Assembly: GCA_965235115.1 (NCBI GenBank)
Contig: OZ249436.1
Span: 932,001-996,000, forward strand
From: Laetmonice hystrix
Taxonomy: Eukaryota
DNA: 64,000 nucleotides
Reading direction: 5' to 3'
The notes beneath the pieces are model-generated. The model ran no database searches and was not told the DNA's origin. It saw nothing but the letters and a program-made list of their open reading frames with translations. This document shows, one piece after another, positions 5,584 through 64,000 of the stretch (the first letter of the stretch is position 1; every line of letters begins with the position of its first letter). Position numbers and translations under genes: made by a program.

Positions 5584-6718
5584 GATCATACATCGAATAC
5601 TTGTACAACCAGGCACCCACTCAGGGTGATCAGAGTGGATGCCGCCAAGCCTAGCCCACATACTGATCATACACCAAATACTTGTACAACCAGGCACCCA
5701 CTCAGGGTGATCAGTCAGAGTGGATGCCGCCAAGCCTAGCCCACATACTGATCATACATCGAATACTTGTACAACCAGGCACCCACTCAGGGTGGTCAGT
5801 CAGAGTGGATGCCGCCAAGCCTAGCCCACATACTGATCATACATCGAATACTTGTACAACCAGGCACCCACTCAGGGTGATCAGAGTGGATGCCGCCAAG
5901 CCTAGCCCACATACTGATCATACATCGAATACTTGTACAACCAGGCACCCACTCAGGGTGGTCAGTCAGAGTGGATGCCGCCAAGCCTAGCCCACATACT
6001 GATCATACATCGAATACTTGTACAACCAGGCACCCACTCAGGGTGATCAGAGTGGATGCCGCCAAGCCTAGCCCACATACTGATCATACATCGAATACTT
6101 GTACAACCAGGCACCCACTCAGGGTGATCAGAGTGGATGCCGCCAAGCCTAGCCCACATACTGATCATACATCGAATACTTGTACAACCAGGCACCCACT
6201 CAGGGTGATCAGTCAGAGTGGATGCCGCCAAGCCTAGCCCACATACTGATCATACATCGAATACTTGTACAACCAGGCACCCACTCAGGGTGGTCAGTCA
6301 GAGTGGATGCCGCCAAGCCTAGCCCACATACTGATCATACATCGAATACTTGTACAACCAGGCACCCACTCAGGGTGATCAGAGTGGATGCCGCCAAGCC
6401 TAGCCCACATACTGATCATACATCGAATACTTGTACAACCAGGCACCCACTCAGGGTGGTCAGTCAGAGTGGATGCCGCCAAGCCTAGCCCACATACTGA
6501 TCATACATCGAATACTTGTACAACCAGGCACCCACTCAGGGTGGTCAGTCAGAGTGGATGCCGCCAAGCCTAGCCCACATACTGATCATACATCGAATAC
6601 TTGTACAACCAGGCACCCACTCAGGGTGATCAGAGTGGATGCCGCCAAGCCTAGCCCACATACTGATCATACATCGAATACTTGTACAACCAGGCACCCA
6701 CTCAGGGTGATCAGTCAG
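5584..6718. repeat. 81/85-bp minisatellite, about 14 copies
   Basis: GATCATACATCGAATACTTGTACAACCAGGCACCCACTCAGGGTG... repeated. Confidence 0.95.
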
Positions 6719-6795
6719 ATGGGGGTGGTCTGATCTAAGATGGGGGTGGTCCGGTAATTTTTTCAGCACTTGTGTATGTGTGAATCATCGAAAGA

Positions 6796-9131
6796 TCTGT
6801 CTCCGTGTATGGTTCCAGTAAATGGTCCGTCTCCGTGGATGGTTCCAGTAAATGGTCCGTCTCCGTGGATGGTTCCAGTAAATGGTCTGTCTCGGTGGAT
6901 GGTTCCAGTAAATGGTCTGTCTCGGTGGATGGTTCCAGTAAATGGTCTGTCTCGGTGGATGGTTCCAGTAAATGGTCTGTCTCCGTGGATGGTTCCAGTA
7001 AATGGTCTGTCTCCGTGGATGGTTCCAGTAAATGGTCTGTCTCCGTGGATGGTTCCAGTAAATGGTCTGTCTCCGTGGATGGTTCCAGTAAATGGTCCGT
7101 CTCCGTGGATGGTTCCAGTAAATGGTCTGTCTCCGTGGATGGTTCCAGTAAATGGTCTGTCTCCGTGGATGGTTCCAGTAAATGGTCTGTCTCCGTGGGT
7201 GGTTCCAGTAAATGGTCCGTCTCCGTGGATGGTTCCAGTAAATGGTCTGTCTCCGTGGATGGTTCCAGTAAATGGTTTGTCTCCGTGGATGGTTCCAGTA
7301 AATGGTTTGTCTCCGTGGATGGTTCCAGTAAATGGTCTGTCTCCGTGGATGGTTCCAGTAAATGGTCTGTCTCCGTGGATGGTTCCAGTAAATGGTCTGT
7401 CTCCGTGGATGGTTCCAGTAAATGGTCTGTCTCCGTGGATGGTTCCAGTAAATGGTTTGTCCCCGTGGATGGTTCCAGTAAATGGTTTGTCTCCGTGGAT
7501 GGTTCCAGTAAATGGTCTGTCTCCGTGGATGGTTCCAGTAAATGGTCTGTCTCGGTGGATGGTTCCAGTAAATGGTCTGTCTCGGTGGATGGTTCCAGTA
7601 AATGGTCTGTCTCGGTGGATGGTTCCAGTAAATGGTCTGTCTCGGTGGATGGTTCCAGTAAATGGTCTGTCTCGGTGGATGGTTCCAGTAAATGGTCTGT
7701 CTCGGTGGATGGTTCCAGTAAATGGTCTGTCTCGGTGGATGGTTCCAGTAAATGGTCTGTCTCGGTGGATGGTTCCAGTAAATGGTCCGTCTCCGTGGAT
7801 GGTTCCAGTAAATGGTCCGTCTCCGTGGATGGTTCCAGTAAATGGTCTGTCTCCGTGGATGGTTCCAGTAAATGGTCTGTCTCCGTGGATGGTTCCAGTA
7901 AATGGTCTGTCTCCGTGGGTGGTTCCAGTAAATGGTCCGTCTCCGTGGATGGTTCCAGTAAATGGTCTGTCTCCGTGGATGGTTCCAGTAAATGGTCTGT
8001 CTCCGTGGATGGTTCCAGTAAATGGTCTGTCTCCGTGGATGGTTCCAGTAAATGGTCTGTCTCGGTGGATGGTTCCAGTAAATGGTCTGTCTCGGTGGAT
8101 GGTTCCAATAAATGGTCTGTCTCCGTGGATGGTTCCAGTAAATGGTCTGTCTCCGTGGATGGTTCCAGTAAATGGTCTGTCTCGGTGGATGGTTCCAGTA
8201 AATGGTCTGTCTCCGTGGATGGTTCCAGTAAATGGTCTGTCTCCGTGTATGGTTCCAGTAAATGGTCTGTCTCCGTGGATGGTTCCAGTAAATGGTCTGT
8301 CTCCGTGGATGGTTCCAGTAAATGGTCTGTCTCCGTGGATGGTTCCAGTAAATGGTCTGTCTCCGTGGATGGTTCCAGTAAATGGTTTGTCTCCGTGGAT
8401 GGTTCCAGTAAATGGTCCGTCTCCGTGGATGGTTCCAGTAAATGGTCTGTCTCCGTGGATGGTTCCAGTAAATGGTCTGTCTCGGTGGATGGTTCCAGTA
8501 AATGGTCCGTCTCCGTGGATGGTTCCAGTAAATGGTCTGTCTCCGTGGATGGTTCCAGTAAATGGTCTGTCTCGGTGGATGGTTCCAGTAAATGGTCTGT
8601 CTCGGTGGATGGTTCCAGTAAATGGTCTGTCTCGGTGGAGATGGTTCCAGTAAATGGTCTGTCTCGGTGGATGGTTCCAGTAAATGGTCTGTCTCGGTGG
8701 ATGGTTCCAGTAAATGGTCTGTCTCGGTGGATGGTTCCAGTAAATGGTCTGTCTCGGTTGATGGTTCCAGTAAATGGTCCGTCTCCGTGGATGGTTCCAG
8801 TAAATGGTCTGTCTCGGTGGATGGTTCCAGTAAATGGTCCGTCTCCGTGAATGGTTCCAGTAAATGGTCTGTCTCCGTGGATGGTTCCAGTAAATGGTCT
8901 GTCTCCGTGGATGGTTCCAGTAAATGGTCTGTCTCCGTGGATGGTTCCAGTAAATGGTCTGTCTCCGTGGATGGTTCCAGTAAATGGTCTGTCTCCGTGG
9001 ATGGTTCCAGTAAATGGTCTGTCTCGGTGGATGGTTCCAGTAAATGGTCTGTCTCCGTGGATGGTTCCAGTAAATGGTCTGTCTCGGTGGATGGTTCCAG
9101 TAAATGGTCTGTCTCCGTGGATGGTTCCAGT
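6796..9131. repeat. 30-bp minisatellite, about 78 copies
   Basis: GGTTCCAGTAAATGGTCTGTCTCSGTGGAT repeated. Confidence 0.97.
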
Positions 9132-32223: not shown

Positions 32224-32366
32224 GTTGGGTTTTTCATCTACTACTGTCTGGAGGCAGGAGATATCAGCCCGGCTGGCCCGATTCCTGCCAACAGCATGTT
32301 CATCTATCGCCCTGACAAGAGGATCGAAATCTGGCGGTTCTTCTTCTACATGCTCATACACGCTGG
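32224..32366 (+). CDS. rho: Rhomboid coding exon 2
   Basis: cag|VGFFIYYCLEAGDISPAGPIPANSMFIYRPDKRIEIWRFFFYMLIHAG|gtgagt; WR motif; 143 nt; missed by the ORF track. Confidence 0.95.
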
Positions 32367-35300
32367 GTGAGTACATACCTTCTACATGCTCATACACGCT
32401 GGGTGAGTGCATACCTTCTACATGCTCATACACGCTGGGTGAGTACCTTCTACATGCTCATACACGCTGGGTGAGTACCTTCTACATGCTCATACACGCT
32501 GGGTGAGTACATGCTCATACACGCTGGGTGAGTACATGCTCATACACGCTGGGTGAGTACATACTCATACACGCTGGGTGAGTACCTTCTACATGCTCAT
32601 ACACGCTGGGTGAGTACCTTCTACATGCTCATACACGCTGGGTGAGTACCTTCTACATGCTCATACACGCTGGGTGAGTACCTTCTACATGCTCATACAC
32701 GCTGGGTAAGTACCTTCTACATGCTCATACACGCTGGGTGAGTACCTTCTACATGCTCATACACGCTGGGTAAGTACCTTCTACATGCTCATACACGCTG
32801 GGTGAGTACATGCTCATACACGCTGGGTGAGTACATACTCATACACGCTGGGTGAGTACCTTCTACATGCTCATACACGCTGGGTGAGTACCTTCTACAT
32901 GCTCATACACGCTGGGTGAGTACCTTCTACATGCTCATACACGCTGGGTGAGTGCATACCTTCTACATGCTTATACACGCTGGGTGAGTACATGCTCATA
33001 CACGCTGGGTGAGTACATGCTCATACACGCTGGGTGAGTACATGCTCATACACGCTGGGTGAGTACATGCTCATACACGCTGGGTGAGTACATACTCATA
33101 CACGCTGGGTGAGTACATGCTCATACACGCTGGGTGAGTACCTACCTTCTACATGCTCATACACGCTGGGTGAGTACCTACCTTCTACATGCTCATACAC
33201 GCTGGGTGAGTACCTACCTTCTACATGCTCATACACGCTGGGTGAGTACCTACCTTCTACATGCTCATACACGCTGGGTGAGTACATACCTTCTACATGC
33301 TCATACACGCTGGGTGAGTACCTTCTACATGCTCATACACGCTGGGTGAGTACCTTCTACATGCTCATACACGCTGGGTGAGTACCTTCTACATGCTCAT
33401 ACACGCTGGGTGAGTACCTTCTACATGCTCATACACGCTGGGTGAGTGCATACCTTCTACATGCTTATACACGCTGGGTGAGTACATGCTCATACACGCT
33501 GGGTGAGTACATGCTCATACACGCTGGGTGAGTACATGCTCATACACGCTGGGTGAGTACATGCTCATACACGCTGGGTGAGTGCATACCTTCTACATGC
33601 TCATACACGCTGGGTGAGTACATGCCTTCTACATGCTCATACACGCTGGGTGAGTACCTTTTACATGCTCATACACGCTGGGTGAGTACCTTCTACATGC
33701 TCATACACGCTGGGTGAGTACCTTCTACATACTCATACACGCTGGGTGAGTACCTTCTACATGCTCATACACGCTGGGTGAGTACCTTCTACATGCTCAT
33801 ACACGCTGGGTGAGTACCTTCTACATGCTCATACACGCTGGGTGAGTACCTTCTACATGCTCATACACGCTGGGTGAGTACCTTCTACATGCTCATACAC
33901 GCTGGGTGAGTACATGCTCATACACGCTGGGTGAGTACATGCTCATACACGCTGGGTGAGTACATGCTCATACACGCTGGGTGAGTACATGCTCATACAC
34001 GCTGGGTGAGTACATGCTCATACACGCTGGGTGAGTGCATACCTTCTACATGCTCATACACGCTGGGTGAGTACATGCTCATACACGCTGGGTGAGTGCA
34101 TACCTTCTACATGCTCATACACGCTGGGTGAGTGCATACCTTCTACATGCTCATACACGCTGGGTGAGTGCATACCTTCTACATGCTCATACACGCTGGG
34201 TAAGTACCTTCTACATGCTCATACACGCTGGGTGAGTACCTTCTACATGCTCATACACGCTGGGTGAGTACCTTCTACATGCTCATACACGCTGGGTGAG
34301 TACATGCTCATACACGCTGGGTGAGTACATGCTCATACACGCTGGGTGAGTACCTTCTACATGCTCATACACGCTGGGTGAGTACCTTCTACATGCTCAT
34401 ACACGCTGGGTGAGTACCTTCTACATGCTCATACACGCTGGGTGAGTACCTTCTACATGCTCATACACGCTGGGTGAGTACATGCTCATACACGCTGGGT
34501 GAGTACATGCTCATACACGCTGGGTGAGTACCTTCTACATGCTCATACACGCTGGGTGAGTACCTTCTACATGCTCATACACGCTGGGTGAGTACCTTCT
34601 ACATGCTCATACACGCTGGGTGAGTACCTTCTACATGCTCATACACGCTGGGTGAGTACATGCTCATACACGCTGGGTGAGTACATGCTCATACACGCTG
34701 GGTGAGTACCTTCTACATGCTCATACACGCTGGGTGAGTACCTTCTACATGCTCATACACGCTGGGTGAGTACATGCTCATACACGCTGGGTGAGTACCT
34801 TCTACATGCTCATACACGCTGGGTGAGTACCTTCTACATGCTCATACACGCTGGGTGAGTACATGCTCATACACGCTGGGTGAGTGCATACCTTCTACAT
34901 GCTCATACACGCTGGGTGAGTACCTTCTACATGCTCATACACGCTGGGTGAGTACCTTCTACATGCTCATACACGCTGGGTGAGTACCTTCTACATGCTC
35001 ATACACGCTGGGTGAGTGCATACCTTCTACATGCTCATACACGCTGGGTGAGTGCATACCTTCTACATGCTCATACACGCTGGGTGAGTGCATACCTTCT
35101 ACATGCTCATACACGCTGGGTGAGTACATGCCTTCTACATGCTCATACACGCTGGGTGAGTGCATACCTTCTACATGCTCATACACGCTGGGTAAGTGCA
35201 TACCTTCTACATGCTCATACACGCTGGGTGAGTGCATACCTTCTACATGCTCACACACGCTGGGTGAGTGCATACCTTCTACATGCTCATACACGCTGGG

Positions 35301-36760
35301 TGAGTACCGTCTACATGCTCATACACGCTGGGTGAGTACCTTCTACATGCTCATACACGCTGGGTGAGTGCATACCTTCTACATGCTCATACACGCTGGG
35401 TGAGTGCATACCTTCTACATGCTCATACACGCTGGGTGAGTACATGCTCATACACGCTGGGTGAGTACATGCCTTCTACATGCTCATACACGCTGGGTGA
35501 GTGCATACCTTCTACATGCTCATACACGCTGGGTGAGTGCATACCTTCTACATGCTCATACACGCTGGGTGAGTACATGCTCATACACGCTGGGTGAGTG
35601 CATACCTTCTACATGCTCATACACGCTGGGTGAGTACATGCTCATACACGCTGGGTGAGTGCATACCTTCTACATGCTCATACACGCTGGGTGAGTGCAT
35701 ACCTTCTACATGCTCATACACGCTGGGTGAGTGCATACCTTCTACATGCTCATACACGCTGGGTGAGTGCATACCTTCTACATGCTCATACACGCTGGGT
35801 GAGTACATGCTCATACACGCTGGGTAAGTGCATACCTTCTACATGCTCATACACGCTGGGTGAGTACCTTCTACATGCTCATACACGCTGGGTGAGTGCA
35901 TACCTTCTACATGCTCATACACGCTGGGTGAGTGAATACCTTCTACATGCTCATACACGCTGGGTGAGTACATGCTCATACACGCTGGGTGAGTACCTTC
36001 TACATGCTCATACACGCTGGGTGAGTACATGCTCATACACGCTGGGTGAGTACCTTCTACATGCTCATACACGCTGGGTGAGTGAATACCTTCTACATGC
36101 TCATACACGCTGGGTGAGTACATGCTCATACACGCTGGGTGAGTGCATACCTTCTACATGCTCATACACGCTGGGTGAGTACCTTCTACATGCTCATACA
36201 CGCTGGGTGAGTGCATACCTTCTACATGCTCATACACGCTGGGTGAGTACCTTCTACATGCTCATACACGCTGGGTGAGTACATGCTCATACACGCTGGG
36301 TGAGTGCATACCTTCTACATGCTCATACACGCTGGGTGAGTGCATACCTTCTACATGCTCATACACGCTGGGTGAGTACATGCTCATACACGCTGGGTGA
36401 GTACATGCTCATACACGCTGGGTGAGTACATGCTCATACACGCTGGGTGAGTACATGCTCATACACGCTGGGTGAGTACATGCTCATACACGCTGGGTGA
36501 GTGCATACCTTCTACATGCTCATACACGCTGGGTGAGTACATGCTCATACACGCTGGGTGAGTACATGCTCATACACGCTGGGTGAGTGCATACCTTCTA
36601 CATGCTCATACACGCTGGTTGAGTACATACCTTCTACATGCTCATACACGCTGGGTGAGTACCTTCTACATGCTCATACACGCTGGGTGAGTGCATACCT
36701 TCTACATGCTCATACACGCTGGGTGAGTACATGCTCATACACGCTGGGTGAGTGCATACC
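32344..36760 (+). repeat. Minisatellite (25/32/36-bp units, about 140 copies) made from the exon-2 donor junction
   Basis: TTCTACATGCTCATACACGCTGG|GTGAGT repeated; the first copy is the exon end. Confidence 0.97.
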
Positions 36761-37767
36761 TCGCCACCAGGTGGCATGACGATCTAAGGGCACCCACCAT
36801 TAGAATATCCAATGGGTACTCGAGCTTTTGCCCAGCCATTTGTTGTTGTTTCCTTTAATTGCCTTGTTGCCATATGGCTACATACACTTCAAACGCCCCC
36901 TGGCACCAAATTATAAGTCCCAGATGTCAGTTGACATTTAATTCACAAAGTAACCACCAGGGTGGTTCTAAGGTACAATACTGCCATCTAGCGGCAATGC
37001 GCAATATTACGACCATCCCAAGGACATGTCATGGCCGTCACCATCTAGAAAGCCGGCACAAACTGAGTACCTTTTTTTCAAGATATTTCTATATTCCAAC
37101 GAGTGCTGAAATAAAATGATCTTTGTATTTGTTTAGAGTAATAGACATAGAAAGTAATGAAATAGGTAATAATATGTGGAACAGGTTATGATAATCTTAG
37201 TTCAATGATATATATATTATGTAGCCAAATGGCTACATTGCCAAGTGCATAATCAGTTCATATAATCTGTTAGGCCTATTATATAGTTTGAATTTGTAAA
37301 GTTTGTGTAAAGTGTATTAGTATTAGTATTATTAGTATTATAGAAGAGATGTGATGATAGAAATAAAGAGTTGAGTCACAGTTATATGCATGTTGTATTG
37401 TTTTCCAGACTCAAATTGGATACCTGTACTTGGCAATGTAGCCAAATGGCTACAAACCCTATTTTCAAAAATTAGGTCAGCCCCCCCAATTTGAGTGTAC
37501 TTTTGTATTTCCACTGCATATCCACACCGTTTGGTGAGTTTATGGATTTTTTCTTCCAAGCAAAGGCATGTTGCCAATTAAAGGGTTAAAATTATTTTTT
37601 GCAATATTGTTCCTGCAAGTCGCAAAAGAGAAAGTTGATATATTATGTCCTTATAGAATTTTCTTTATTTCACCCCTGTCCCCGTATTCATTTGGAAACA
37701 CTCCAGGTATTCTACTGGCGCTTTCTAAGGAAGAAATAAACGCATTGTGGCTGTGGAAGTCGCTCAT

Positions 37768-38129
37768 TCCTGGTAATCACAACCATCCCCAGTCTGCAAA
37801 AAGTTAAATTATTCCTGGTAATCACAACCATCCCCAGTCTGCAAAAAGTTAAATTATTCCTGGTAATCACAACCATCCCCAGTCTGCAAAAGGTTACATT
37901 TTTTCTGGTAATCACAACCATCCCCAGTCTGCAAAAAGTTAAATTATTTCTGGTAATCACAACCATCCCCAGTCTGCAAAAAGTTAAATTATTTCTGGTA
38001 ATCACAACCATCCCCAGTCTGCAAAAAGTTAAATTATTCCTGGTAATCACAACCATCCCCAGTCTGCAAAAGGTTACATTTTTTCTGGTAATCACAACCA
38101 TCCCCAGTCTGCAAAAAGTTAAATTATTC
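37768..38129. repeat. 45-bp minisatellite, 8 copies
   Basis: CTGGTAATCACAACCATCCCCAGTCTGCAAAAAGTTAAATTATTY repeated. Confidence 0.95.
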
Positions 38130-43530: not shown

Positions 43531-43677
43531 TTACTTTTGAAGTGCCATGGTAGCCATGTAGTATGCGCGGAGAAGATGTGCAACAACCTGACCGTATTCC
43601 AACATGTCGTTAGCAACCGTATCCAACGAACCGGGCCGGCCTCGTTCTGGTAACCCCAGAATGGACGCTTTTAAGTC
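43531..43677 (-). CDS. GRL101: GRL101-like GPCR, putative terminal exon (kinase-like tail, part 3)
   Basis: ttgcag|DLKASILGLPERGRPGSLDTVANDMLEYGQVVAHLLRAYYMATMALQK*; phase 0 matches the previous exon. Confidence 0.65.
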   Translation of the reverse strand, partial: DLKASILGLPERGRPGSLDTVANDMLEYGQVVAHLLRAYYMATMALQK

Positions 43678-44282
43678 CTGCAACGAGCGGAAGGTGGGTC
43701 TATAGGCACATACGATGGTCTGGATTTTATAGCCGGCGGGGTTAGGGGTGGACCTACTTAAATAGCCTATAACCCCCCCCCCCCAAAAAAAAAAAGAATT
43801 CTCGGTTTCTGGTTCGTGCGCGCGTCACCTCAGATGCCGCGCATCAGTGGTTTTTTTTACTTATCCTCACCTTGGATGGCTGTGTGAATTATGCTGCCAT
43901 CTAGCGGTAAGGCTTGAAACTAACCATGGATATTCCATTAAGATCCATTAACACTGCAACGGAAGTGTGTTGTATTCAAAGCGATGACAGCCAAGGTCAT
44001 GGTCCTTGTTTATGAGTTCATTTTACACGATAATTCTTATGAGGCTTGCCATTTTAGCCAGCTGTCACCCCAAAAAAAATCTTTAAAAAAAAAAACCAAA
44101 AAAAAAAACGCGTCACCGCACCACTTTTGAAATGTTCTTGAGACCAGAAACCGGGAAAAATTTGTTTGGCCTAAGCTAGCGCGGGAGATCTGGTTAATGT
44201 ATATGATTGTAGGGTACAAAGAATCCCTATCGAAGAAACCCTTTTGGAGTCCCTTCTGAAATGCGGGTCTACCTCAGCTTAC

Positions 44283-44482
44283 CTTGGTATCCAGTTCAAT
44301 CGTTTCTATGGTAACCCGACCAAGTCGGAGTCCGTCGGCGTGGATGTCCCGGATGACCTGCGCCACCTGGTGAGAGATTGTGTAGAGGACTGTGACGTCA
44401 CGCACGGCGTCTGCTCGCACACGGAGGTATTTGTCGAGCGTCTCGCGACCCTTACTGTCCGCCTCGTTCGAACATATCTTCA
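44283..44482 (-). CDS. GRL101: GRL101-like GPCR, C-terminal exon (kinase-like tail, part 2)
   Basis: ctcag|TG KICSNEADSKGRETLDKYL...HQVAQVIRDIHADGLRLGRVTIETIELDTK|gtaagc; 200 nt, phase 1 to 0. Confidence 0.7.
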
Positions 44483-46423: not shown

Positions 46424-46498
46424 TAAGAGGAAGAGCCTTGGACTAGAAAAAGAATTCATTCAGAATTCATTTGAAACTTTGCTTATCCAACTCAATAG

Positions 46499-48695
46499 TG
46501 GATTACAAATGAAATACTTGAGCAAATTCATGATAAGGATTACTTTTTAAGGAAGGCTAAAGAGACAGGCAACATGGATGACTGGAACATAGCTCGTAGG
46601 CTTAAAAACCGAGTAATAAATCTTGTTAGGTATTCCAAAGCAGACTATATTAAGAGTAATCTAGAAACATACAAAGACGATGCCAAAAAGTACTGGAGAA
46701 CCATCAAAAGTGTTCTGCCTGATGGAAAAAATAATGCTAACAGTGTAATCAAACTTAAGGACGAGACTGGAGAAGATGTTGAAAACTGTAGAACTGCCGC
46801 ATTTATAAACCAGTTCTTTGTTTCTATAGGACCTAAGTTAGCAAAACCCCTCAATGCTAAATGGACCTATTATGGACCCTCTTTAGACCAAACCTTTGAA
46901 CTCAAACCAATAACAAATGAATACACCAAAAAGTTAGTAAAGGCTATTAACACGAACAAGTCATCTGCTATTACAAACTTATCATCCCAAATATTAAAAG
47001 ATGCCTTTAGTGCTCTAGTCCCCGAATTAACTCATCTGCTCAACCTATCTTTAACCACCAATGTTATACCTCAAGCTTGGAAAGTTGCTAAGGTAGTGCC
47101 TCTGCCGAAAGACGGAAACTCTGAAGATGTAAATAATTGGAGACCCATATCTCTTTTGCCGCTACCTGGCAAACTCTTGGAAAAATCGGTACATACTCAA
47201 CTTATGGAACACCTTACTTCCAAAAATATTCTGGATAAAAATCAAGGAGGTTTCAGGAAAGGTTTCTCCACCACTTCAACAATAGCAAAACTTACTGATG
47301 ATATTTACTCCGCAATGAATAATTCCGAACTAACACTGGCAGTATTTATAGATTTTAAAAAAGCATTTGACACACTAGACCACGATATCCTGCTTATGAA
47401 AATGAAACATCTGGGTTTAAAGGACAATGCAGTTCAATGGTTCAAGAATTACCTACATGGCAGGACACAATTTACAGTAGCCAATGATATAACATCAAAC
47501 TCACTACCTATCACATGTGGAGTACCCCAAGGTTCCATACTGGGACCCCTACTTTTCCTGTGCTACATAAACGATCTGTCATCAGCTATTAAATCATCTA
47601 AACACAAGTTGTACGCTGACGACACTGCTGTTCATCAGTCAGGACCTGACATTAATACTATAAAATATAAATTGCAACATGACCTTAATTCTATTTCCAA
47701 ATGGTGTGATGAGAACCGTCTCACAATCAATGCAAAGAAAACAAAGGTCATGATTTTTGGCACACATCAGAAGCTTAAGAGGACTCAAGACCCTGAACTG
47801 AAAATTGGCGATTCAAAGCTAGATGTAGTACAGGAGTACAAGTACCTAGGTGTAACGTTGGATAAAACACTATCTTTTGTAAAGCATACCAAAAATGTTA
47901 TAAAAACAGCTAGCCAAAAACTCTATCTTTTGAACAAATTACGTCCTTACCTCACTGACTCTGCCTGTCTCCAAGTTTACAAATCCATGGTCCTTCCGTA
48001 TATAGAATATGGTGATGTCTTATATAGTTGTACGAACGTTAAACTACTGGACAAATTGCAACGTATTCAGAACAGAGGACTCAAATTGTGTTTTAGACTA
48101 CCTCAAACAACTGGTACCCTGGACATCCACCGAAAGGCCAAACTAAATTTCCTAACAGACAGGAGAGACTCTCATCTATTAAATGTAATGTTCCATCGAA
48201 GCAATGACCCAGACTATGTTGACAATAGAGAAATCCATACCAGGTTACATGACTATGTAACTCTGGTAGTACAACGCCCTAAGAACGCTTCATTCACTAA
48301 AAGTGTTTGTTACAGAGGAGGGAACATTTGGAATAACCTAGATCCCGTTGATAAACAGATGACAACTATAGAACGCTTTAAGTTTAGACAAAAGTCGGTC
48401 TTAAAGAGTAAACTGGCATAAGCCCTTTATTTTCCCGTAAAATAGATAATCGCCACATGCAGAATCACCTACTCGTAGTTAAGATATCATCTCATTACCA
48501 TCTCATTTTCTCTCATTAACCCACAAGTAGGTACCCATATATTACTTCTTAGCGTCATCTTGTATAAAAATATAATGTGTAAAGTTGATAAATTGTAACC
48601 TTTCTTGGACTGGGCGGTTTTGAAAACCGGTATCCCACATGTACCGAAAATCTCTCAGTATAAATAAATGAATGAAAAAAAAAAGAAAAAAAAAA
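46499..48695 (+). mobile_element. 5'-truncated non-LTR retrotransposon (CR1/L2-group LINE), antisense within a GPCR intron
   Basis: Open frame from WITNEILEQ (46499) to the stop at 48421; 3' UTR ending AATAAATGAATG plus an A-rich tail (about 48663-48695). Confidence 0.9.
46574..48421 (+). CDS. LINE ORF2 reverse transcriptase domain (endonuclease missing)
   Basis: Motifs NWRPISLL, NQGGFRKG, DFKKAFD, GVPQGSILGPLLF, YADD, YKYLGV. Confidence 0.95.
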   Translation: MDDWNIARRLKNRVINLVRYSKADYIKSNLETYKDDAKKYWRTIKSVLPDGKNNANSVIKLKDETGEDVENCRTAAFINQFFVSIGPKLAKPLNAKWTYYGPSLDQTFELKPITNEYTKKLVKAINTNKSSAITNLSSQILKDAFSALVPELTHLLNLSLTTNVIPQAWKVAKVVPLPKDGNSEDVNNWRPISLLPLPGKLLEKSVHTQLMEHLTSKNILDKNQGGFRKGFSTTSTIAKLTDDIYSAMNNSELTLAVFIDFKKAFDTLDHDILLMKMKHLGLKDNAVQWFKNYLHGRTQFTVANDITSNSLPITCGVPQGSILGPLLFLCYINDLSSAIKSSKHKLYADDTAVHQSGPDINTIKYKLQHDLNSISKWCDENRLTINAKKTKVMIFGTHQKLKRTQDPELKIGDSKLDVVQEYKYLGVTLDKTLSFVKHTKNVIKTASQKLYLLNKLRPYLTDSACLQVYKSMVLPYIEYGDVLYSCTNVKLLDKLQRIQNRGLKLCFRLPQTTGTLDIHRKAKLNFLTDRRDSHLLNVMFHRSNDPDYVDNREIHTRLHDYVTLVVQRPKNASFTKSVCYRGGNIWNNLDPVDKQMTTIERFKFRQKSVLKSKLA

Positions 48696-48704
48696 GTACG
48701 ATAC

Positions 48705-48774
48705 CTTGTACTCGCTTTCCTTGCCAGCCGGTGCAGCCAACGATACTGGGTTCTATCTGGGATGCTTTCTGCCA
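48705..48774 (-). CDS. GRL101: GRL101-like GPCR, small exon (tail part 1)
   Basis: atatag|WQKASQIEPSIVGCTGWQGKRVQ G|gtatcg; 70 nt, phase 0 to 1, bridging the phase mismatch between 49807 and 44482. Confidence 0.55.
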
Positions 48775-48999: not shown

Positions 49000-49827
49000 G
49001 AGACTTACCGGGAACTGTAATGTTAGGAGACTCACCGGGAACTGTAATGTTAGGAGACTCACCGGAAACTGTAATGTTAGGAGACTCACCGGAAACTGTA
49101 ATGTTAGGAGACTCACCGAGAACTGTAATGTTAGGAGACTCATCGGGAACTCTAATGTTAGGAGACTCACCGGAAACTGTAATGTTAGGAGACTCACCGG
49201 AAACTGTAATGTTAGGAGACTCACCGGAAACTGTAATGTTAGGAGACTCACCGGGAACTCTAATGTTAGGAGACTCATCGGGAACTCTAATGTTAGGAGA
49301 CTCACCGGGAACTCTAATGTTAGGAGACTTACCGGGAACTGTAATGTTAGGAGACTCACCGGGAACTGTAATGTTAGGAGACTCACCGGGAACTGTAATG
49401 TTAGGAGACTCACTCGGAACTGTAATGTTAGGAGACTCACCGGGAACTGTAATGTTAGGAGACTTACCGATAACTGTAATGTTATGAGACTCACCGATAA
49501 CTGTAATGTTAGGAGACTCACCGGGAACTGTAATGTTAGGAGACTCACCGGGAACTGTAATGTTAGGAGACTTACCGGGAACTGTAATGTTAGGAGACTC
49601 ACCGGGAACTGCAATGTTAGGAGACTCACCGGGAACTGTAATGTTAGGAGACTCACTCACCGGGAACTGTAATGTTAGGAGACTCACTCACCGGGAACTG
49701 TAATGTTAGGAGACTCACCGGGAACTGTAATGTTAGGAGAACTGTAATGTTAGGAGACTCACCGAGAACTCTAATGTTAGGAGAACTGTAATGTTAGGAG
49801 ACTCACCGGGAACTGTAATGTTAGGAG
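49000..49827 (-). repeat. 27-bp minisatellite, about 30 copies, made from the TM7-exon donor
   Basis: Minus-strand unit CTCCTAACATTACAGTTCCCG|GTGAGT. Confidence 0.95.
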
Positions 49828-49931
49828 GGTATACAGGAAAGGGTTGAGCGCCGAGTTCACAGGAAGGATGAAGACTACCGTCCAGGCATACACCACACCA
49901 GGCACCCGCACGTCAAGTAAAGCCATCAGAC
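49807..49931 (-). CDS. GRL101: GRL101-like GPCR, TM7 exon
   Basis: tttcag|GT LMALLDVRVPGVVYAWTVVFILPVNSALNPFLYTLLTLQFP|gtgagt; NSxxNPxxY motif; missed by the ORF track. Confidence 0.92.
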
Positions 49932-52294: not shown

Positions 52295-52371
52295 TTATGA
52301 TGCGAAACAAAATCAAAGTAGAGGAGTCTACCGTTTTTCAAAATCATGCCGTTCTCCTGTAGCCTACTCAC

Positions 52372-53913
52372 CCATCGTGTTGATCGGGACCCAGCAACAG
52401 AAGTCGACAAACACCAGAAACGTCATTTTGCGTGCTCTCTTCATCTCGCGACCTTTTTGCGCCTGCGATCCCACATTTTTGATTGACTTGTACATCAGGG
52501 TATATGCTCCCCACATGAGTAGGAATATGGTAAAATTGAGCGCGTGGAATATGATGAAAGAATACTCCCATCCAGGGGAGATGTCGGGTGTAATATAGAG
52601 CGCCACACAGACCCCTGACCGCGCGTAAAACTGACCTTTGAAGTACTCGCTTGGCATCATGGGAATGACAAAGAGCATGACGACAGTTGCCCACACTGTC
52701 GCCATGACGACACGCGCTGAGTTCAGCGTTAGATGGTGGGTGGAGAATGGAAAGAGGAGTTTGTGCATGCGATCGCAGGTAACGACGAATAAAGTCAGGA
52801 CTGAGGTTTCACTGGAGACTGCCGAGAGAAATCCTAAAACTTGGCACGTCCAGCTGAGCCGCCATGACGTAGCGTTTTCGATGTACTGACCGCGGTAACG
52901 TGCATCCACCACTCCGATCACTAACATGTAGAACCCCATGAGGAGATCGGCCAGCGCTAGGTTCTTGATGAGATAATTAGGGACGACCAAGTCAAACACG
53001 TGTGTACTTCTCCACGTCAGTACGAACACGTTACCAATGATAGAAATACAGGCTAGGATCCAGATAAAAGCCCTCAGGACCTGGTGACTCATCAGATCCT
53101 CACAGGAAGAAACCTCGTCTTGTTTGGGGAGACATGCAGACGGCGGTAGTGACACAAAACAACAAAACATGTAGTCATCACTCTCAAGATACCGCAGGCC
53201 GCGTAAGTTCTCCAAGTCTCTCTTCAAGAAGTCGATGATCACATTCCGACTCATGTTCAAGTGTTCTAGGTTAGAAAGACCATGAAAAGCGCCATGTTCT
53301 AGGAGTGAGATGTCATTATTTGATATATCCAGGTGAGTTAGACTTTGGAGACGTTTAAAGGTTCCTGACTTTATTACTGTCAGTTGCATGTCACTGAAGT
53401 CCAGTCGGGGCAAACTGACCAGAGACTGGAGAGAGTCGTGAGAGATGAACATTAATGGGTTTCCATCGAGATGTAGCTCATTGAGTTGTCCTAACCCGCT
53501 AAAAACGTCATCCGTTAGAACCCGGATGTCATTCCAGGAGATATCGAGACGCTTCAGGTTGTACTGGGACGCGAAGGGACAGCATGACAGATTATAAATA
53601 CCATTCCAAGACAGACCCAGTTCAATGAGGAAATAAAACGATCGAAAAGTATCATCTGTGATTGTACTCACAGCATTACCAGACAAGTTTAGAGCTCGGG
53701 CAGCTACTGAGACTGACGAAGGTACCCGAACCAATCCGACCTGTGTACACGTGTACGTAAGGCTGTGACATTGGCAACCTTGAGGGCACTCAAGGTCACA
53801 GTAAAGTTCATCGTCACCATGATGACAGTGACGTATGCCATCACAGCGTTGACGGGCAGTTACACAGTTCATGGATCCGCGACACCGTATCATTCCAGGA
53901 CAGGCGTAGGAAT
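52372..53913 (-). CDS. GRL101: GRL101-like GPCR, large exon: last LDLa, LRRNT, LRRs, hinge and TM1-TM6
   Basis: ttag|AT...CDGIRHCHHGDDELYC, LxxLDLSxN-type repeats, SSCEDLM hinge, NLALADLLMG, CDR, CWVP G|gtgagt; 1542 nt. Confidence 0.96.
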
Positions 53914-54080
53914 CTAAGGTGGAGAATGAACTATTATTACTATTATTTAGCACACAAAACTGAGGCAGTTGTCTGAGGGCAGTTTGTCTGGGGAAATTGA
54001 CCTATGAAGGAGAGAGCTGATAATTTTTGATAAGTAAATTGATCTGTTTTGTCTGATTCCGCTTAGATGTGCTAGCTTAC

Positions 54081-54197
54081 AGCAGTCACGTTCGTCCTCG
54101 CCGTTCGGACAGTCAGCGGCGCCGTCACAGACCTTGTAGGCGGCCACGCAGTAACTGGACGGGCACTTGGCCTGTCCCGCGGGACACTGGAAGCCTT
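54081..54197 (-). CDS. GRL101: GRL101-like GPCR, LDLa exon
   Basis: ttgtag|AA GFQCPAGQAKCPSSYCVAAYKVCDGAADCPNGEDERDC T|gtaagc; 117 nt, phase 1-1. Confidence 0.93.
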
Positions 54198-57100
54198 CTA
54201 CAACATCGGACACAAAATTATACCGTGATTTACACTGGAAGTCTTCTACAACATCAGACACAAAATTATACGGTGATGTCATGAACCCTGGAAGTTTTCT
54301 ACAACATCAGACACAGAATTATACGGTGATGGACACTGGAAGTCTTCTACAACATCAGACACAGAATTATACGGTGATGTCATGAACCCTGGAAGTTTTC
54401 TACAACATCAGACACAGAATTATACGGTGATGGACACTGGAAGTCTTCTACAACATCAGACACAAAATTATACGGTGATGGACACTGGAAGTCTTCTACA
54501 ACATCAGACACAGAATTATACCGTGATTTACACTGGAAGTCTTCTACAACATCAGACACAAAGTTATACGGTGATGGACACTGGAAGTCTGCTACAACAT
54601 CAGACACAAAGTTATACGGTGATGGACACTGGAAGTCTGCTACAACATCAGACACAAAATTATACCGTGATTTACACTGGAAGTCTTCTACAACATCGGA
54701 CACAAAATTATACGGTGATGGACACTGGAAGTCTTCTGCAACATCAGACACAAAATTATACGGTGATGGACACTGGAAGTCTTCTACAACATCAGACACA
54801 AAATTATACGGTGATGGACACTGGAAGTCTTCTACAACATGAGACACAAAATTATACGGTGATGGACACTGGAAGTCTTCTACAACATCAGACACAAAAT
54901 TATACGGTGATGGACACTGGAAGTCTTCTACAACATCAGACACAAAATTATACGGTGATGGACACTGGAAGTCTTCTACAACATCAGACACAAAATTATA
55001 CGGTGATGGACACTGGAAGTCTTCTACAACATCAGACACAAAATTATACGGTGATGGACACTGGAAGTCTGCTACAACATCAGACACAGAATTATACGGT
55101 CATGGACACTGGAAGTCTTCTACAACATCAGACACAAAATTATACGGTGATGGACACTGGAAGTCTTCTACAACATCAGACACAAAATTATACGGTGATG
55201 TCATGGACACTGGAAGTCTTCTACAACATCAGACACAGAATTATACGGTGATGGACACTGGAAGTCTTCTACAACATCAGACACAGAATTATACGGTGAT
55301 GGACACTGGAAGTCTTCTACAACATCAGACACAGAATTATACGGTGATGGACACTGGAAGTCTGCTACAACATCAGACACAGAATTATACGGTGATGGAC
55401 ACTGGAAGTCTGCTACAACATCAGACACAGAATTATACGGTGATGTCATGGACACTGGAAGTCTTCTACAACATCAGACACAGAATTATACGGTGATGGA
55501 CACTGGAAGTCTGCTACAACATCAGACACAGAATTATACGGTGATGGACACTGGAAGTCTGCTACAACATCAGACACAGAATTATACGGTGGTGGACACT
55601 GGAAGTCTGCTACAACATCAGACACAGAATTATACGGTGATGGACACTGGAAGTCTGCTACAACATCAGACACAAAGTTATACGGTGATGGACACTGGAA
55701 GTCTTCTACAACATCATACACAAAATTATACGATGATGGACACTGGAAGTCTTCTACAACATCAGACACAGAATTATACGGTGATGGACACTGGAAGTCT
55801 GCTACAACATCAGACACAAAATTATACGGTGATGGACACTGGAAGTCTTCTACAACATCAGACACAAAATTATACGGTGATGGACACTGGAAGTCTTCTA
55901 CAACATCAGACACAAAATTATACCGTGATTTACACTGGAAGTCTTCTACAACATCAGACACAGAATTATACGGTGATGGACACTGGAAGTCTTCTACAAC
56001 ATCAGACACAAAATTATACGGTGATGGACACTGGAAGTCTTCTACAACATCAGACACAAAATTATACGGTGATGGACACTGGAAGTCTTCTACAACATCA
56101 GACACAAAATTATACGGTGATGGACACTGGAAGTCTTCTACAACATCAGACACAAAATTATACCGTGATTTACACTGGAAGTCTTCTACAACATCAGACA
56201 CAGAATTATACGGTGATGGACACTGGAAGTCTTCTACAACATCAGACACAAAATTATACGGTGATGGACACTGGAAGTCTTCTACAACATCAGACACAGA
56301 ATTATACGGTGATGGACACTGGAAGTCTGCTACAACATCAGACACAGAATTATACGGTGATGGACACTGGAAGTCTTCTACAACATCGGACACAGAATTA
56401 TACCGTGATTTACACTGGAAGTCTTCTACAACATCAGACACAAAATTATACGGTGATGGACACTGGAAGTCTTCTACAACATGAGACACAAATTTTATAC
56501 GGTGATGGACACTGGAAGTCTTCTACAACATCAGACACAAATTTTATACGGTGATGGACACTGGAAGTCTTCTACAACATCAGACACAAAATTATACGGT
56601 GATGTCATGAACCCTGGAAGTTTTCTACAACATCAGACACAAAGTTATACGGTGATGGACACTGGAATTCTTCTACAACATCAGACACAGAATTATACCG
56701 TGATTTACACTGGAAGTCTTCTACAACATCAGACACAAAATTATACGGTGATGTCATGAACCCTGGAAGTTTTCTACAACATCAGACACAAAATTATACG
56801 GTGATGGACACTGGAAGTCTTCTACAACATCAGACACAAAATTATACGGTGATGGACACTGGAAGTCTTCTACAACATCAGACACAGAATTATACCGTGA
56901 TTTACACTGGAAGTCTTCTACAACATCAGACACAGAATTATACGGTGATGGACACTGGAAGTCTTCTACAACATCAGACACAGAATTATACCGTGATTTA
57001 CACTGGAAGTCTTCTACAACATCAGACACAAAATTATACGGTGATGGACACTGGAAGTCTTCTACAACATCAGACACAGAATTATACGGTGATGGACACT

Positions 57101-60100
57101 GGAAGTCTTCTACAACATCAGACACAGAATTATACGGTGATGGACACTGGACGTCTTCTACAACATCAGACACAGAATTATACGGTGATGGACACTGGAA
57201 GTCTTCTACAACATCAGACACAAAATTATACGGTGATGGACACTGGAAGTCTTCTACAACATCAGACACAGAATTATACGGTGATGGACACTGGAAGTCT
57301 TCTACAACATCAGACACAGAATTATACGGTGATGGACACTGGAAGTCTTCTACAACATCAGACACAAAATTATACGGTGATGGACACTGGAAGTCTTCTA
57401 CAACATCAGACACAGAATTATACGGTGATGGACACTGGAAGTCTTCTACAACATCAGACACAGAATTATACGGTGATGGACACTGGAAGTCTGCTACAAC
57501 ATCAGACACAGAATTATACGGTGATGGACACTGGAAGTCTGCTACAACATCAGACACAGAATTATACGGTGATGTCATGGACACTGGAAGTCTTCTACAA
57601 CATCAGACACAGAATTATACGGTGATGGACACTGGAAGTCTGCTACAACATCAGACACAGAATTATACGGTGATGGACACTGGAAGTCTGCTACAACATC
57701 AGACACAGAATTATACGGTGGTGGACACTGGAAGTCTGCTACAACATCAGACACAGAATTATACGGTGATGGACACTGGAAGTCTGCTACAACATCAGAC
57801 ACAAAGTTATACGGTGATGGACACTGGAAGTCTTCTACAACATCATACACAAAATTATACGATGATGGACACTGGAAGTCTTCTACAACATCAGACACAG
57901 AATTATACGGTGATGGACACTGGAAGTCTGCTACAACATCAGACACAAAATTATACGGTGATGGACACTGGAAGTCTTCTACAACATCAGACACAAAATT
58001 ATACGGTGATGGACACTGGAAGTCTTCTACAACATCAGACACAAAATTATACCGTGATTTACACTGGAAGTCTTCTACAACATCAGACACAGAATTATAC
58101 GGTGATGGACACTGGAAGTCTTCTACAACATCAGACACAAAATTATACGGTGATGGACACTGGAAGTCTTCTACAACATCAGACACAAAATTATACGGTG
58201 ATGGACACTGGAAGTCTTCTACAACATCAGACACAAAATTATACGGTGATGGACACTGGAAGTCTTCTACAACATCAGACACAAAATTATACCGTGATTT
58301 ACACTGGAAGTCTTCTACAACATCAGACACAGAATTATACGGTGATGGACACTGGAAGTCTTCTACAACATCAGACACAAAATTATACGGTGATGGACAC
58401 TGGAAGTCTTCTACAACATCAGACACAGAATTATACGGTGATGGACACTGGAAGTCTGCTACAACATCAGACACAGAATTATACGGTGATGGACACTGGA
58501 AGTCTTCTACAACATCGGACACAGAATTATACCGTGATTTACACTGGAAGTCTTCTACAACATCAGACACAAAATTATACGGTGATGGACACTGGAAGTC
58601 TTCTACAACATGAGACACAAATTTTATACGGTGATGGACACTGGAAGTCTTCTACAACATCAGACACAAATTTTATACGGTGATGGACACTGGAAGTCTT
58701 CTACAACATCAGACACAAAATTATACGGTGATGTCATGAACCCTGGAAGTTTTCTACAACATCAGACACAAAGTTATACGGTGATGGACACTGGAATTCT
58801 TCTACAACATCAGACACAGAATTATACCGTGATTTACACTGGAAGTCTTCTACAACATCAGACACAAAATTATACGGTGATGTCATGAACCCTGGAAGTT
58901 TTCTACAACATCAGACACAAAATTATACGGTGATGGACACTGGAAGTCTTCTACAACATCAGACACAAAATTATACGGTGATGGACACTGGAAGTCTTCT
59001 ACAACATCAGACACAGAATTATACCGTGATTTACACTGGAAGTCTTCTACAACATCAGACACAGAATTATACGGTGATGGACACTGGAAGTCTTCTACAA
59101 CATCAGACACAGAATTATACCGTGATTTACACTGGAAGTCTTCTACAACATCAGACACAAAATTATACGGTGATGGACACTGGAAGTCTTCTACAACATC
59201 AGACACAGAATTATACGGTGATGGACACTGGAAGTCTTCTACAACATCAGACACAGAATTATACGGTGATGGACACTGGACGTCTTCTACAACATCAGAC
59301 ACAGAATTATACGGTGATGGACACTGGAAGTCTTCTACAACATCAGACACAAAATTATACGGTGATGGACACTGGAAGTCTTCTACAACATCAGACACAG
59401 AATTATACGGTGATGGACACTGGAAGTCTTCTACAACATCAGACACAGAATTATACGGTGATGGACACTGGAAGTCTTCTACAACATCAGACACAAAATT
59501 ATACGGTGATGGACACTGGAAGTCTTCTACAACATCAGACACAGAATTATACGGTGATGGACACTGGAAGTCTTCTACAACATCAGACACAGAATTATAC
59601 GGTGATGGACACTGGAAGTCTTCTACAACATCAGACACAAAATTATACGGTGATGGACACTGGAAGTCTTCTACAACATCAGACACAAAATTATACGGTG
59701 ATGGACACTGGAAGTCTTCTACAACATCAGACACAAAATTATACGGTGATGGACACTGGAAGTCTTCTACAACATGAGACACAAATTTTATACGGTGATG
59801 GACACTGGAAGTCTTCTACAACATCAGACACAAATTTTATACGGTGATGGACACTGGAAGTCTTCTACAACATCAGACACAAAATTATACGGTGATGTCA
59901 TGAACCCTGGAAGTTTTCTACAACATCAGACACAAAGTTATACGGTGATGGACACTGGAATTCTTCTACAACATCAGACACAGAATTATACCGTGATTTA
60001 CACTGGAAGTCTTCTACAACATCAGACACAAAATTATACGGTGATGTCATGAACCCTGGAAGTTTTCTACAACATCAGACACAAAGTTATACGGTGATGG

Positions 60101-62591
60101 ACACTGGAAGTCTTCTACAACATCAGACACAGAATTATACCGTGATTTACACTGGAAGTCTTCTACAACATCAGACACAGAATTATACCGTGATTTACAC
60201 TGGAAGTCTTCTACAACATCAGACACAGAATTATACCGTGATTTACACTGGAAGTCTTCTACAACATCAGACACAGAATTATACGGTGATGGACACTGGA
60301 AGTCTTCTACAACATCAGACACAGAATTATACGGTGATGGACACTGGAAGTCTTCTACAACATCAGACACAAAATTATACGGTGATGGACACTGGAAGTC
60401 TTCTACAACATCAGACACAAAATTATACGGTGATGGACACTGGAAGTCTTCTACAACATCAGACACAAAATTATACCGTGATTTACACTGGAAGTCTTCT
60501 ACAACATCAGACACAGAATTATACGGTGATGGACACTGGAAGTCTTCTACAACATCAGACACAAAATTATACGGTGATGGACACTGGAAGTCTTCTACAA
60601 CATCAGACACAGAATTATACGGTGATGGACACTGGAAGTCTGCTACAACATCAGACACAGAATTATACGGTGATGGACACTGGAAGTCTTCTACAACATC
60701 GGACACAGAATTATACCGTGATTTACACTGGAAGTCTTCTACAACATCAGACACAAAATTATACGGTGATGGACACTGGAAGTCTTCTACAACATGAGAC
60801 ACAAATTTTATACGGTGATGGACACTGGAAGTCTTCTACAACATCAGACACAAATTTTATACGGTGATGGACACTGGAAGTCTTCTACAACATCAGACAC
60901 AAAATTATACGGTGATGTCATGAACCCTGGAAGTTTTCTACAACATCAGACACAAAGTTATACGGTGATGGACACTGGAATTCTTCTACAACATCAGACA
61001 CAGAATTATACCGTGATTTACACTGGAAGTCTTCTACAACATCAGACACAAAATTATACGGTGATGTCATGAACCCTGGAAGTTTTCTACAACATCAGAC
61101 ACAAAATTATACGGTGATGGACACTGGAAGTCTTCTACAACATCAGACACAAAATTATACGGTGATGGACACTGGAAGTCTTCTACAACATCAGACACAG
61201 AATTATACCGTGATTTACACTGGAAGTCTTCTACAACATCAGACACAGAATTATACGGTGATGGACACTGGAAGTCTTCTACAACATCAGACACAGAATT
61301 ATACCGTGATTTACACTGGAAGTCTTCTACAACATCAGACACAAAATTATACGGTGATGGACACTGGAAGTCTTCTACAACATCAGACACAGAATTATAC
61401 GGTGATGGACACTGGAAGTCTTCTACAACATCAGACACAGAATTATACGGTGATGGACACTGGACGTCTTCTACAACATCAGACACAGAATTATACGGTG
61501 ATGGACACTGGAAGTCTTCTACAACATCAGACACAAAATTATACGGTGATGGACACTGGAAGTCTTCTACAACATCAGACACAGAATTATACGGTGATGG
61601 ACACTGGAAGTCTTCTACAACATCAGACACAGAATTATACGGTGATGGACACTGGAAGTCTTCTACAACATCAGACACAAAATTATACGGTGATGGACAC
61701 TGGAAGTCTTCTACAACATCAGACACAGAATTATACGGTGATGGACACTGGAAGTCTTCTACAACATCAGACACAGAATTATACGGTGATGGACACTGGA
61801 AGTCTTCTACAACATCAGACACAAAATTATACGGTGATGGACACTGGAAGTCTTCTACAACATCAGACACAAAATTATACGGTGATGGACACTGGAAGTC
61901 TTCTACAACATCAGACACAAAATTATACGGTGATGGACACTGGAAGTCTTCTACAACATGAGACACAAATTTTATACGGTGATGGACACTGGAAGTCTTC
62001 TACAACATCAGACACAAATTTTATACGGTGATGGACACTGGAAGTCTTCTACAACATCAGACACAAAATTATACGGTGATGTCATGAACCCTGGAAGTTT
62101 TCTACAACATCAGACACAAAGTTATACGGTGATGGACACTGGAATTCTTCTACAACATCAGACACAGAATTATACCGTGATTTACACTGGAAGTCTTCTA
62201 CAACATCAGACACAAAATTATACGGTGATGTCATGAACCCTGGAAGTTTTCTACAACATCAGACACAAAGTTATACGGTGATGGACACTGGAAGTCTTCT
62301 ACAACATCAGACACAGAATTATACCGTGATTTACACTGGAAGTCTTCTACAACATCAGACACAGAATTATACCGTGATTTACACTGGAAGTCTTCTACAA
62401 CATCAGACACAGAATTATACCGTGATTTACACTGGAAGTCTTCTACAACATCAGACACAGAATTATACGGTGATGGACACTGGAAGTCTTCTACAACATC
62501 AGACACAGAATTATACGGTGATGGACACTGGAAGTCTTCTACAACATCGGACACAAAATTATACGGTGACACTGGAGGTCTTCTACAACAT
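54183..62591 (-). repeat. 48-bp minisatellite, about 175 copies, made from the LDLa-exon acceptor; fills almost the whole intron
   Basis: Minus-strand unit CATCACCGTATAATTYTGTGTCTGATGTTGTAG|AAGACTTCCAGTGTC. Confidence 0.97.
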
Positions 62592-62608
62592 ATATGTAAG
62601 ATACTGAC

Positions 62609-62893
62609 CGCAGTTCTCGAGGTGACCAGCGTCCCGGCATCCCAGGATGACTCCATAACGGTCACTGTCATATAAACACCTCCAGTCCTCCGGGTAACGC
62701 TGTGTGTTCTTACATCGAACCGTCTCCGACCCTGGAGAAGGTGGTCGCCTGGAGGACGCCAGAGACACACACATACCTTTATCTTCGTCCTCCTTGTGAG
62801 TTCCGGGACAGTCGACTATGACGTCACAGCGTCGGTCCAATGATATACACGTGCCATCATAACACTGGAAGGTGTGGTCCATGGAACACGTAT
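62609..62893 (-). CDS. GRL101: GRL101-like GPCR, LDLa exon
   Basis: ctcag|AT TCSMDHTFQCYDGTCISLDRRCDVIVDCPG...CLYDSDRYGVILGCRDAGHLENC G|gtcagt; 285 nt, phase 1-1. Confidence 0.92.
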
Positions 62894-63778: not shown

Positions 63779-63895
63779 CACAGGCCACTTCGTCCGAGGA
63801 GTCTGCGCAGTGAGGCCAAAGGTCACAGCGGTCCTCGCCCCGTATACATACAGCATCCGCACACCGGAACTCGGCGTCTGTACAGTTCGGGAACG
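63779..63895 (-). CDS. GRL101: GRL101-like GPCR, LDLa exon; the gene continues beyond the window
   Basis: ttgcag|CG FPNCTDAEFRCADAVCIRGEDRCDLWPHCADSSDEVAC G|gtgagt; 117 nt, phase 1-1; missed by the ORF track. Confidence 0.92.
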
Positions 63896-64000
63896 CTGCA
63901 AGCGTTCACATCCATACATTATCTACACATAGCGTCCGCACACCGGAACTCGGCGTCTGTAACGTTACAGTTCGTGAACGCTACAACCGTTCACATCCAT

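Follow-up and report, generated by a model that had tools for sequence, protein, structure and literature searches.

A 48-bp minisatellite with about 174 copies of its own 3' splice site fills an 8.4-kb receptor-gene intron in Laetmonice hystrix

Introduction

The largest minisatellite in a 64,000-nucleotide stretch of the Laetmonice hystrix genome (the window; NCBI GenBank assembly GCA_965235115.1, contig OZ249436.1, positions 932,001 to 996,000 of the forward strand) fills an intron of a GRL101-like receptor gene on the minus strand, and its 48-bp units repeat the 3' splice site of that intron together with the first nucleotides of the following exon. Judged on its sequence organization, with units that span the boundary, decoys that keep the AG, the authentic site in terminal position and a homogenised core, the array is a mirage, a term for tandem copies of an exon-intron boundary that was named in the amphioxus Adh3 gene and extends to globin, troponin C and PGBD5 genes (PMC3087553, PMC3902484). 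The type of configuration is known, and it is the size that is unusually large for an acceptor-type array. The array is probably a tolerated by-product of minisatellite instability without function, with splicing most likely still taking place at the last AG by exon definition.

Structure of the array and intron

Tandem Repeats Finder (TRF) reports a period of 48, 173.5 copies and 93 % matches for the array, in a window in which locus-specific minisatellites are abundant (101 TRF rows). Intron B-C runs on the minus strand from the donor GT at 62608 to the true acceptor AG at 54199-54198, and exon C starts at 54197. A 26-nt first piece at the 5' end of the intron consists of 17 unique nt and 9 nt of unit end, in agreement with a preliminary description, made from the sequence alone, which had given about 17 unique nt after the donor and 48-bp units for the rest. 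The array features are as follows.

54182..62591, minus strand: acceptor-type mirage minisatellite, 48-bp unit (TRF and unit analysis)
54198..62608, minus strand: intron B-C, 8,411 nt, phase 1, GT...AG, filled by the array (sequence)
62539..62582, minus strand: first unit, of 44 nt, with an AG 70 nt away from the donor; its final 25 nt match the true acceptor base for base
58171..62538, minus strand: exact higher-order duplication, with two blocks of 2,184 bp (45 units) each that agree at every base (100 % identity)
55317..59574, minus strand: second exact higher-order duplication, again of two fully identical blocks, here 2,129 bp (44 units) each
54198..54245, minus strand: last unit, which holds the true acceptor

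The unit lengths are 44 nt (one unit), 48 nt (147), 49 nt (ten) and 53 nt (fifteen), and 26 of the 173 are not a multiple of three. In each unit 33 nt corresponding to the end of the intron are followed by 15 nt corresponding to the beginning of the exon, the array stopping 15-16 nt inside exon C, and a candidate branch A would lie at about -21. The TTGTAG acceptor and the 15 nt of exon had been described correctly, but the tract called T-rich is a weak pyrimidine tract interrupted by G. Two unit types make up 81 of the 173 units, so far as the homogenised core is concerned, and the first and last units are each unique. A genome search with the array unit, of a kind that skips simple repeats, gave 46 matches, all at C1:986100-994539 and none at other loci, which speaks against a dispersed element but does not prove the point, and no AATAAA or ATTAAA polyadenylation signal was found in the array.

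The true site and 173 decoys give the intron 174 acceptors of the form TGYAG (173 TAG and one CAG), with a YAG at the end of all 173 decoy units. Sixteen of the 174 are in frame with exon C, and only two are both in frame and stop-free, namely the true acceptor and the first decoy before it, 48 nt upstream (AG 54247-54246). Use of that decoy would add 16 residues in frame, including one extra Cys, and would produce a 165-nt exon, inside the normal size range; the earlier proposal that the nearest copy extends the ectodomain in frame is borne out to this extent. The 48-nt unit is indeed stop-free in the exon frame, although the nearest unit is a variant and not the consensus that had been translated, and the frame shift ascribed to copies with a 5-nt insertion does begin at the second unit upstream of the true site, which is 53 nt long, but the ten 49-nt units shift the frame too. 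The true exon start AAGGC occurs in none of the 173 decoys; AAGAC, first taken as the decoy form in general, is found in 79 % (136/173), the others reading CAGAC (20), AAAAC (12) and AAGAA (5).

The authentic site is taken to be the terminal copy, as only the last AG gives an LDLa exon in frame without added repeat, with a continuous homologue alignment.

Host gene

By its domain content the host gene is a GRL101-like LDLa-LRR-7TM (seven-transmembrane) receptor, with multiple LDLa domains, LRRs and a 7TM domain. LDLa occurs in each of exons A to D, in exon D together with LRRs and 7TM (Pfam PF00057, PF13855, PF00001). The gene shares several LDLa repeats, LRRs and a rhodopsin-type 7TM domain with the GRL101-like leucine-rich repeat-containing receptor described in PMC8286064 and, by architecture, corresponds to the longer GRL101-like form, which has CUB and C-type lectin domains as well as a long tail; the upstream 10 kb (locus L039) contributes CUB, C-type lectin and LDLa exons. 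Its closest relatives among longer proteins are GRL101-like receptors, and it is only 36-41 % identical to any match found; the class is given by architecture and best matches. The exons and introns in the window are listed below.

63779..63895, minus strand: exon A, 117 nt, LDLa (Pfam, gene model)
62609..62893, minus strand: exon B, 285 nt, LDLa module and a second Cys-rich module; its donor, GTCAGT at 62608, has a score of 9.2 bits, close to the median of real donors
54081..54197, minus strand: exon C, 117 nt, one complete LDLa (PF00057, E 2e-10), phase 1-1; donor GTAAGC, 5.0 bits
53914..54080, minus strand: intron C-D, 167 nt
52372..53913, minus strand: exon D, 1,542 nt, with LDLa, LRRs and most of 7TM
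49807..49931, minus strand: exon E, TM7 (transmembrane segment 7) with NPxxY
48705..48774, minus strand: small tail exon, 70 nt, phase 0-1, putative, from frame and canonical sites
44283..44482, minus strand: tail exon, alignable with large GRL101-like proteins in their C-terminal tail
43531..43677, minus strand: last coding exon, with stop

The gene model starts in a lectin-region exon and runs through 11 exons as far as the stop; it does not take in the CUB and first lectin exons. Spliced through canonical AG/GT sites, the 11 exons give 1,003 codons with the sole stop at the end, a result that argues against the pseudogene considered in the preliminary description. The C-terminal tail can be aligned to that of each of four homologues, and the homologue P0001 joins an exon-B-like module (1338-1380) directly to the exon C domain (1378-1416). 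Assembly and reads differ in exon D (two runs, a small sample) at 12 codons, seven silent and five missense with no stops, and both read-derived indels are intronic. From its sequence the receptor gene looks functional.

Positions 43531-44482 hold a C-terminal tail of about 140 residues that is common to long GRL101-like proteins (25-36 % identity from TM6 to the tail); it had no Pfam match for the part tested and by eye may resemble a degenerate kinase-like segment. A receptor-gene intron at about 46450-48500 may contain a decayed long interspersed nuclear element reverse-transcriptase fragment on the plus strand, as judged by eye.

Assembled length of the array

Three sequencing runs (X1-X3), recorded as one sample and study, were used. 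The junction from exon B through the donor into the array is present in all three, with unique contigs ending at the array edge, and the runs behave as DNA, with intron C-D covered and no joints. Contigs collapse the array, and contig depth is a rough guide and not a copy number. The observed depth of array over flank, against the value predicted from the assembly, was 50 against 67.5 (X1), 89 against 95 and 50 against 57 (X2), and 37 against 57 (X3). These ratios differ between runs and amount to 65-94 % of the assembled count, or about 110-165 units. The array is therefore mainly not an assembly artefact, and the read depth does not point to the much shorter intron that the preliminary description had allowed for.

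The assembly may nevertheless overstate the length, with one or both of the identical 2.1-kb blocks duplicated in assembly and a real array of about 85-130 units. The complete identity of both block pairs and a depth ratio under expectation in four of four comparisons speak for this, but removal of both blocks would give 49 %, below the observed ratios, and a shorter second allele would account for the shortfall. An overstated length is considered unlikely, and the finding holds even at 85 units. The base-identical blocks are read as recent unequal exchanges, duplications made by the assembly being less likely. At positions 52300-54300 the main contigs of runs X1-X3 show 0, 6 and 13 differences, in three distinct sets, which exceeds the expectation for one diploid.

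Choice of the splice site

Acceptors were scored with a rough matrix from 62 heuristically called sites. The true acceptor scores 5.5 bits against a decoy median of 6.1, and with 100 of the 173 decoys equal to it or higher, intrinsic strength is rejected as the explanation for site choice at the 48-bp array. At least three decoys reach the score of the true site in 8 of 10 acceptor arrays. Exon A of the receptor gene has a CAG at its true site and TAG in the common decoys, none of 13 decoys scoring as high as the true site, and there intrinsic strength may contribute. RNA structure masking the decoys was also rejected: a six-unit fold was worse than shuffled sequences (z +2.04; 198 of the 200 shuffles folded as well), and over the last 30 nt the predicted openness of 160 of the 173 decoys equals or exceeds that of the true site.

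No usable donor was found in the array, where the best GT scores 1.7 bits and falls short of the 5th percentile (2.9 bits) of 68 real donors of this genome, and so a real donor lies within normal exon length of only the last three or four decoys. Exon C has its donor 117 nt downstream of the true acceptor; called LDLa exons measure 99-177 nt in 55 of 59 cases, and exon C is typical of them. The preliminary description had the spliceosome bypass about 174 near-identical acceptors. While 173 AGs are passed over if the full receptor is spliced, they are unequal as competitors and only the last three or four would count.

The explanation preferred here is that a 48-bp piece over the intron/exon C boundary would first have been duplicated, after which slippage and unequal exchange would have multiplied the copies, with recent amplification probably in steps of about 2.1-2.2 kb because two block pairs are base-identical. 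Spread would have been possible only into the intron, as copies within the exon would break the protein. A downstream 5' splice site acts in an enhancer-like manner in exon definition (PMC8724738), and U1 bound to the donor of exon C would act with enhancers in the complete exon to recruit 3' splice-site factors to the nearest upstream acceptor. The decoys would never be defined as exon starts, since each has 15 nt of exon only and no partner donor. Effective competition would come from the last few copies, at +48, +101, +149 and perhaps +202 nt, all of which except +48 would lead to stops. Transcripts with premature stops are removed by the established pathway of nonsense-mediated decay, which would be the fate of rare products from the other decoys.

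Several points weigh against this explanation. Introns of this genome are often short (20 of 52 donor-to-acceptor gaps under 230 nt, the shortest 113), and the strong exon B donor with decoys at +118 and +166 nt resembles an ordinary short intron, which intron definition would be expected to favour. The early decoys are transcribed 8 kb ahead of the true site, and exon C has only a moderate donor, whose 5.0 bits rank above the 10th percentile but below the median. In the human 6-16, CBS and ABCA7 arrays, splicing makes some use of neighbouring pseudo-sites. The AG at 54198 is assigned by frame and homology, not from RNA. The experimental work consulted concerns mammalian donors, and a 5'-to-3' scan would explain the choice of a first donor, not of a last acceptor. 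The likeness of the early decoys to an ordinary short intron is the weightiest of these points.

Alternative explanations

Among the alternatives, leaky choice has the best standing and is plausible, though less likely than not, and it is compatible with exon definition at the last AG as a side effect. In this case the nearest decoy would serve in a real minority of transcripts, adding 16 residues with one unpaired Cys before the LDLa, or exon C would be skipped more as the array grows. The +48 product is in frame, stop-free and of ordinary exon size, and exon C, at 117 nt, is frame-neutral if skipped. There are parallels in ABCA7, with retention of one unit and length-dependent skipping of the next exon (PMC5954066), and in CBS, which uses two pseudo-sites (PMC1557585), whereas the F7, LMNB2, PDGF and amphioxus cases use the authentic site only. 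Of 10 acceptor arrays examined, 3 have a nearest decoy that is both in frame and free of stops, about the chance level from unit lengths, and this makes a 48-nt stop-free unit unremarkable and gives no sign of selection. Early pairing of the exon B donor with a decoy at +70, +118 or +166 nt is improbable by comparison; about 8.3 kb of repeat with stops would be kept, the transcript degraded and the output of the allele lowered. Short introns are common in this genome, the +70 acceptor matches the true site exactly over 25 nt and every early decoy leads to stops, but the coding frame is intact with changes that tend to be silent, the array junctions are found in all three runs (one sample and study on record), and five more arrays in the receptor gene would compound any loss.

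It is very improbable that the array is coding, as a long repeat exon extending the ectodomain, or that the gene is a pseudogene. The stop-free 48-nt unit would suit a coding array, but the units that are not multiples of three, the stop-free frame from only 2 of 174 acceptors and the direct joining of the exon-B-like module to the exon C domain in homologues (P0001) argue against it, as the 1,003 unbroken codons do against a pseudogene. Recursive, stepwise splicing through the array can practically be set aside: a long intron with regularly spaced AGs would suit it, but the 8,411 nt contain no AGGT ratchet points and the AGs are followed by AAG, CAG or AAA. Two bolder readings, taken jointly, are also given little weight, namely that minisatellites are born on splice junctions at about three times chance through splicing- or transcription-linked mutation, or that the 174-unit array is a length-tunable splicing rheostat.

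Comparison with known systems

Like this array, the amphioxus mirages (Adh3, troponin C, BflGb6/BflGb9 and PGBD5) contain copies of intron end and exon start with the AG inside the intron, have the authentic site joined to the whole exon and edge units that diverge from the core, and occur several to a genome. BflGb6 is of the acceptor type but has 3-6 units of 150-160 bp, against about 174 units of 48 bp that fill the intron here. Regular splicing was undisturbed in amphioxus by reverse transcription PCR (PMC3087553, PMC3902484), whereas here it is predicted from sequence.

Scale has a precedent in the human ABCA7 intron 18 variable number tandem repeat (VNTR), whose alleles range from 12 to about 427 units and reach 10.7 kb, and which shows one-unit retention (PMC5954066). 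There too each unit contains a copy of the neighbouring exon's splice site, but the array is donor-type with the first copy authentic, the unit is 25 bp and length is tied to disease and exon skipping, whereas here the last copy is authentic. The human F7 IVS7 37-bp VNTR and the CBS, LMNB2 and PDGF arrays are donor-type with 5-20 units; those of F7, LMNB2 and PDGF use the authentic site only, and extra F7 units left the choice unchanged (PMC1557585). The likeness lies in identical pseudo-sites that are functional if the authentic one is lost but normally silent, position beside the exon being decisive. Oriented scanning, as described for F7-type arrays, cannot alone explain the passing of 173 upstream acceptors.

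No acceptor-type array of more than 100 units was found in the literature searched, outside which lie most subscription papers and supplements, and PMC12783039 and PMC10078293 contributed nothing on repeated acceptors. Reed and Maniatis (1986) reportedly studied duplicated splice sites and saw the outer site used when the inner had a truncated exon.

Other boundary-spanning arrays

The receptor gene has six boundary-spanning arrays, four acceptor-type (64 bp x 17, 41 bp x 6, about 79 bp x 14-17 and 48 bp x 174) and two donor-type (32 bp x 47, and 27 bp with 27 donor copies). Besides the 48-bp array, two of the six lie wholly or partly in the window.

49000..49827, minus strand: donor-type mirage after exon E, 27-bp unit, 27 GTRAGT copies
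63845..64000, minus strand, on into L039 1-1130: end of the acceptor-type mirage at exon A, unit of about 79 bp, 13-16 decoys

Read-through of the donor-type mirage at 49000-49827 would stop after about nine codons and lose the long tail. In L039 an acceptor-type mirage (7206-8289, C1:1003206-1004289; 64 bp x 16.9) precedes a C-type lectin exon, with 16 of 16 decoys scoring at least as high as the true acceptor, and a donor-type mirage (5539-7039; 32 bp x 47, 45 GGTGAGT copies) follows it, so that arrays flank the exon on both sides; another acceptor-type mirage (1277-1513; 41 bp x 5.8) precedes an LDLa exon. At L038 (C29:19861369-19864479) a 21-bp acceptor-type array has 20 of 20 visible decoys in frame and stop-free, 19 of them identical to the true site; it extends past the locus end and is a better candidate than the 48-bp array for a ladder of in-frame isoforms. 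Units at 32343-36730 and 37766-38129 of the window, with donor-like GGTGAGT on the plus strand or acceptor-like TTGCAG on the minus strand, may be mirages of another gene.

A survey of other places in the genome covered 30 of the 150 listed LDLa hits, merged to 22 stretches (77.5 kb), in which 81 exon groups were called and 68 acceptors and 71 donors passed score cut-offs, two sites being corrected by eye. Six of the 68 acceptors and three of the 71 donors lay in arrays. Nine of 27 arrays ended inside an exon across the splice site, where 2.1 were expected by shifting (P 0.0002) and 2.5-2.8 under a null with each array collapsed to one unit (P about 0.0004; range over three nulls 0.0002-0.0005). 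The nine come from only four gene regions and the splice sites are heuristic calls, and the roughly 3-fold enrichment of arrays on splice junctions is suggestive only. Boundary-spanning arrays are frequent in this genome, and the rarity implied in the preliminary description did not hold for a class of array already named and described.

Implications

The array is a trap for gene prediction and for short-read junction mapping. Were it a rheostat, copy number would set the 16-residue extension of exon C, skipping or decay, and through them receptor dose or ligand binding between alleles. The mechanistic literature found deals with donor arrays only, and with 173 decoys, many of them scoring like the true site and made as much as 8 kb before it during transcription, this acceptor array would serve as a test substrate, a natural experiment on exon definition against first-come intron definition in an invertebrate with many short introns.

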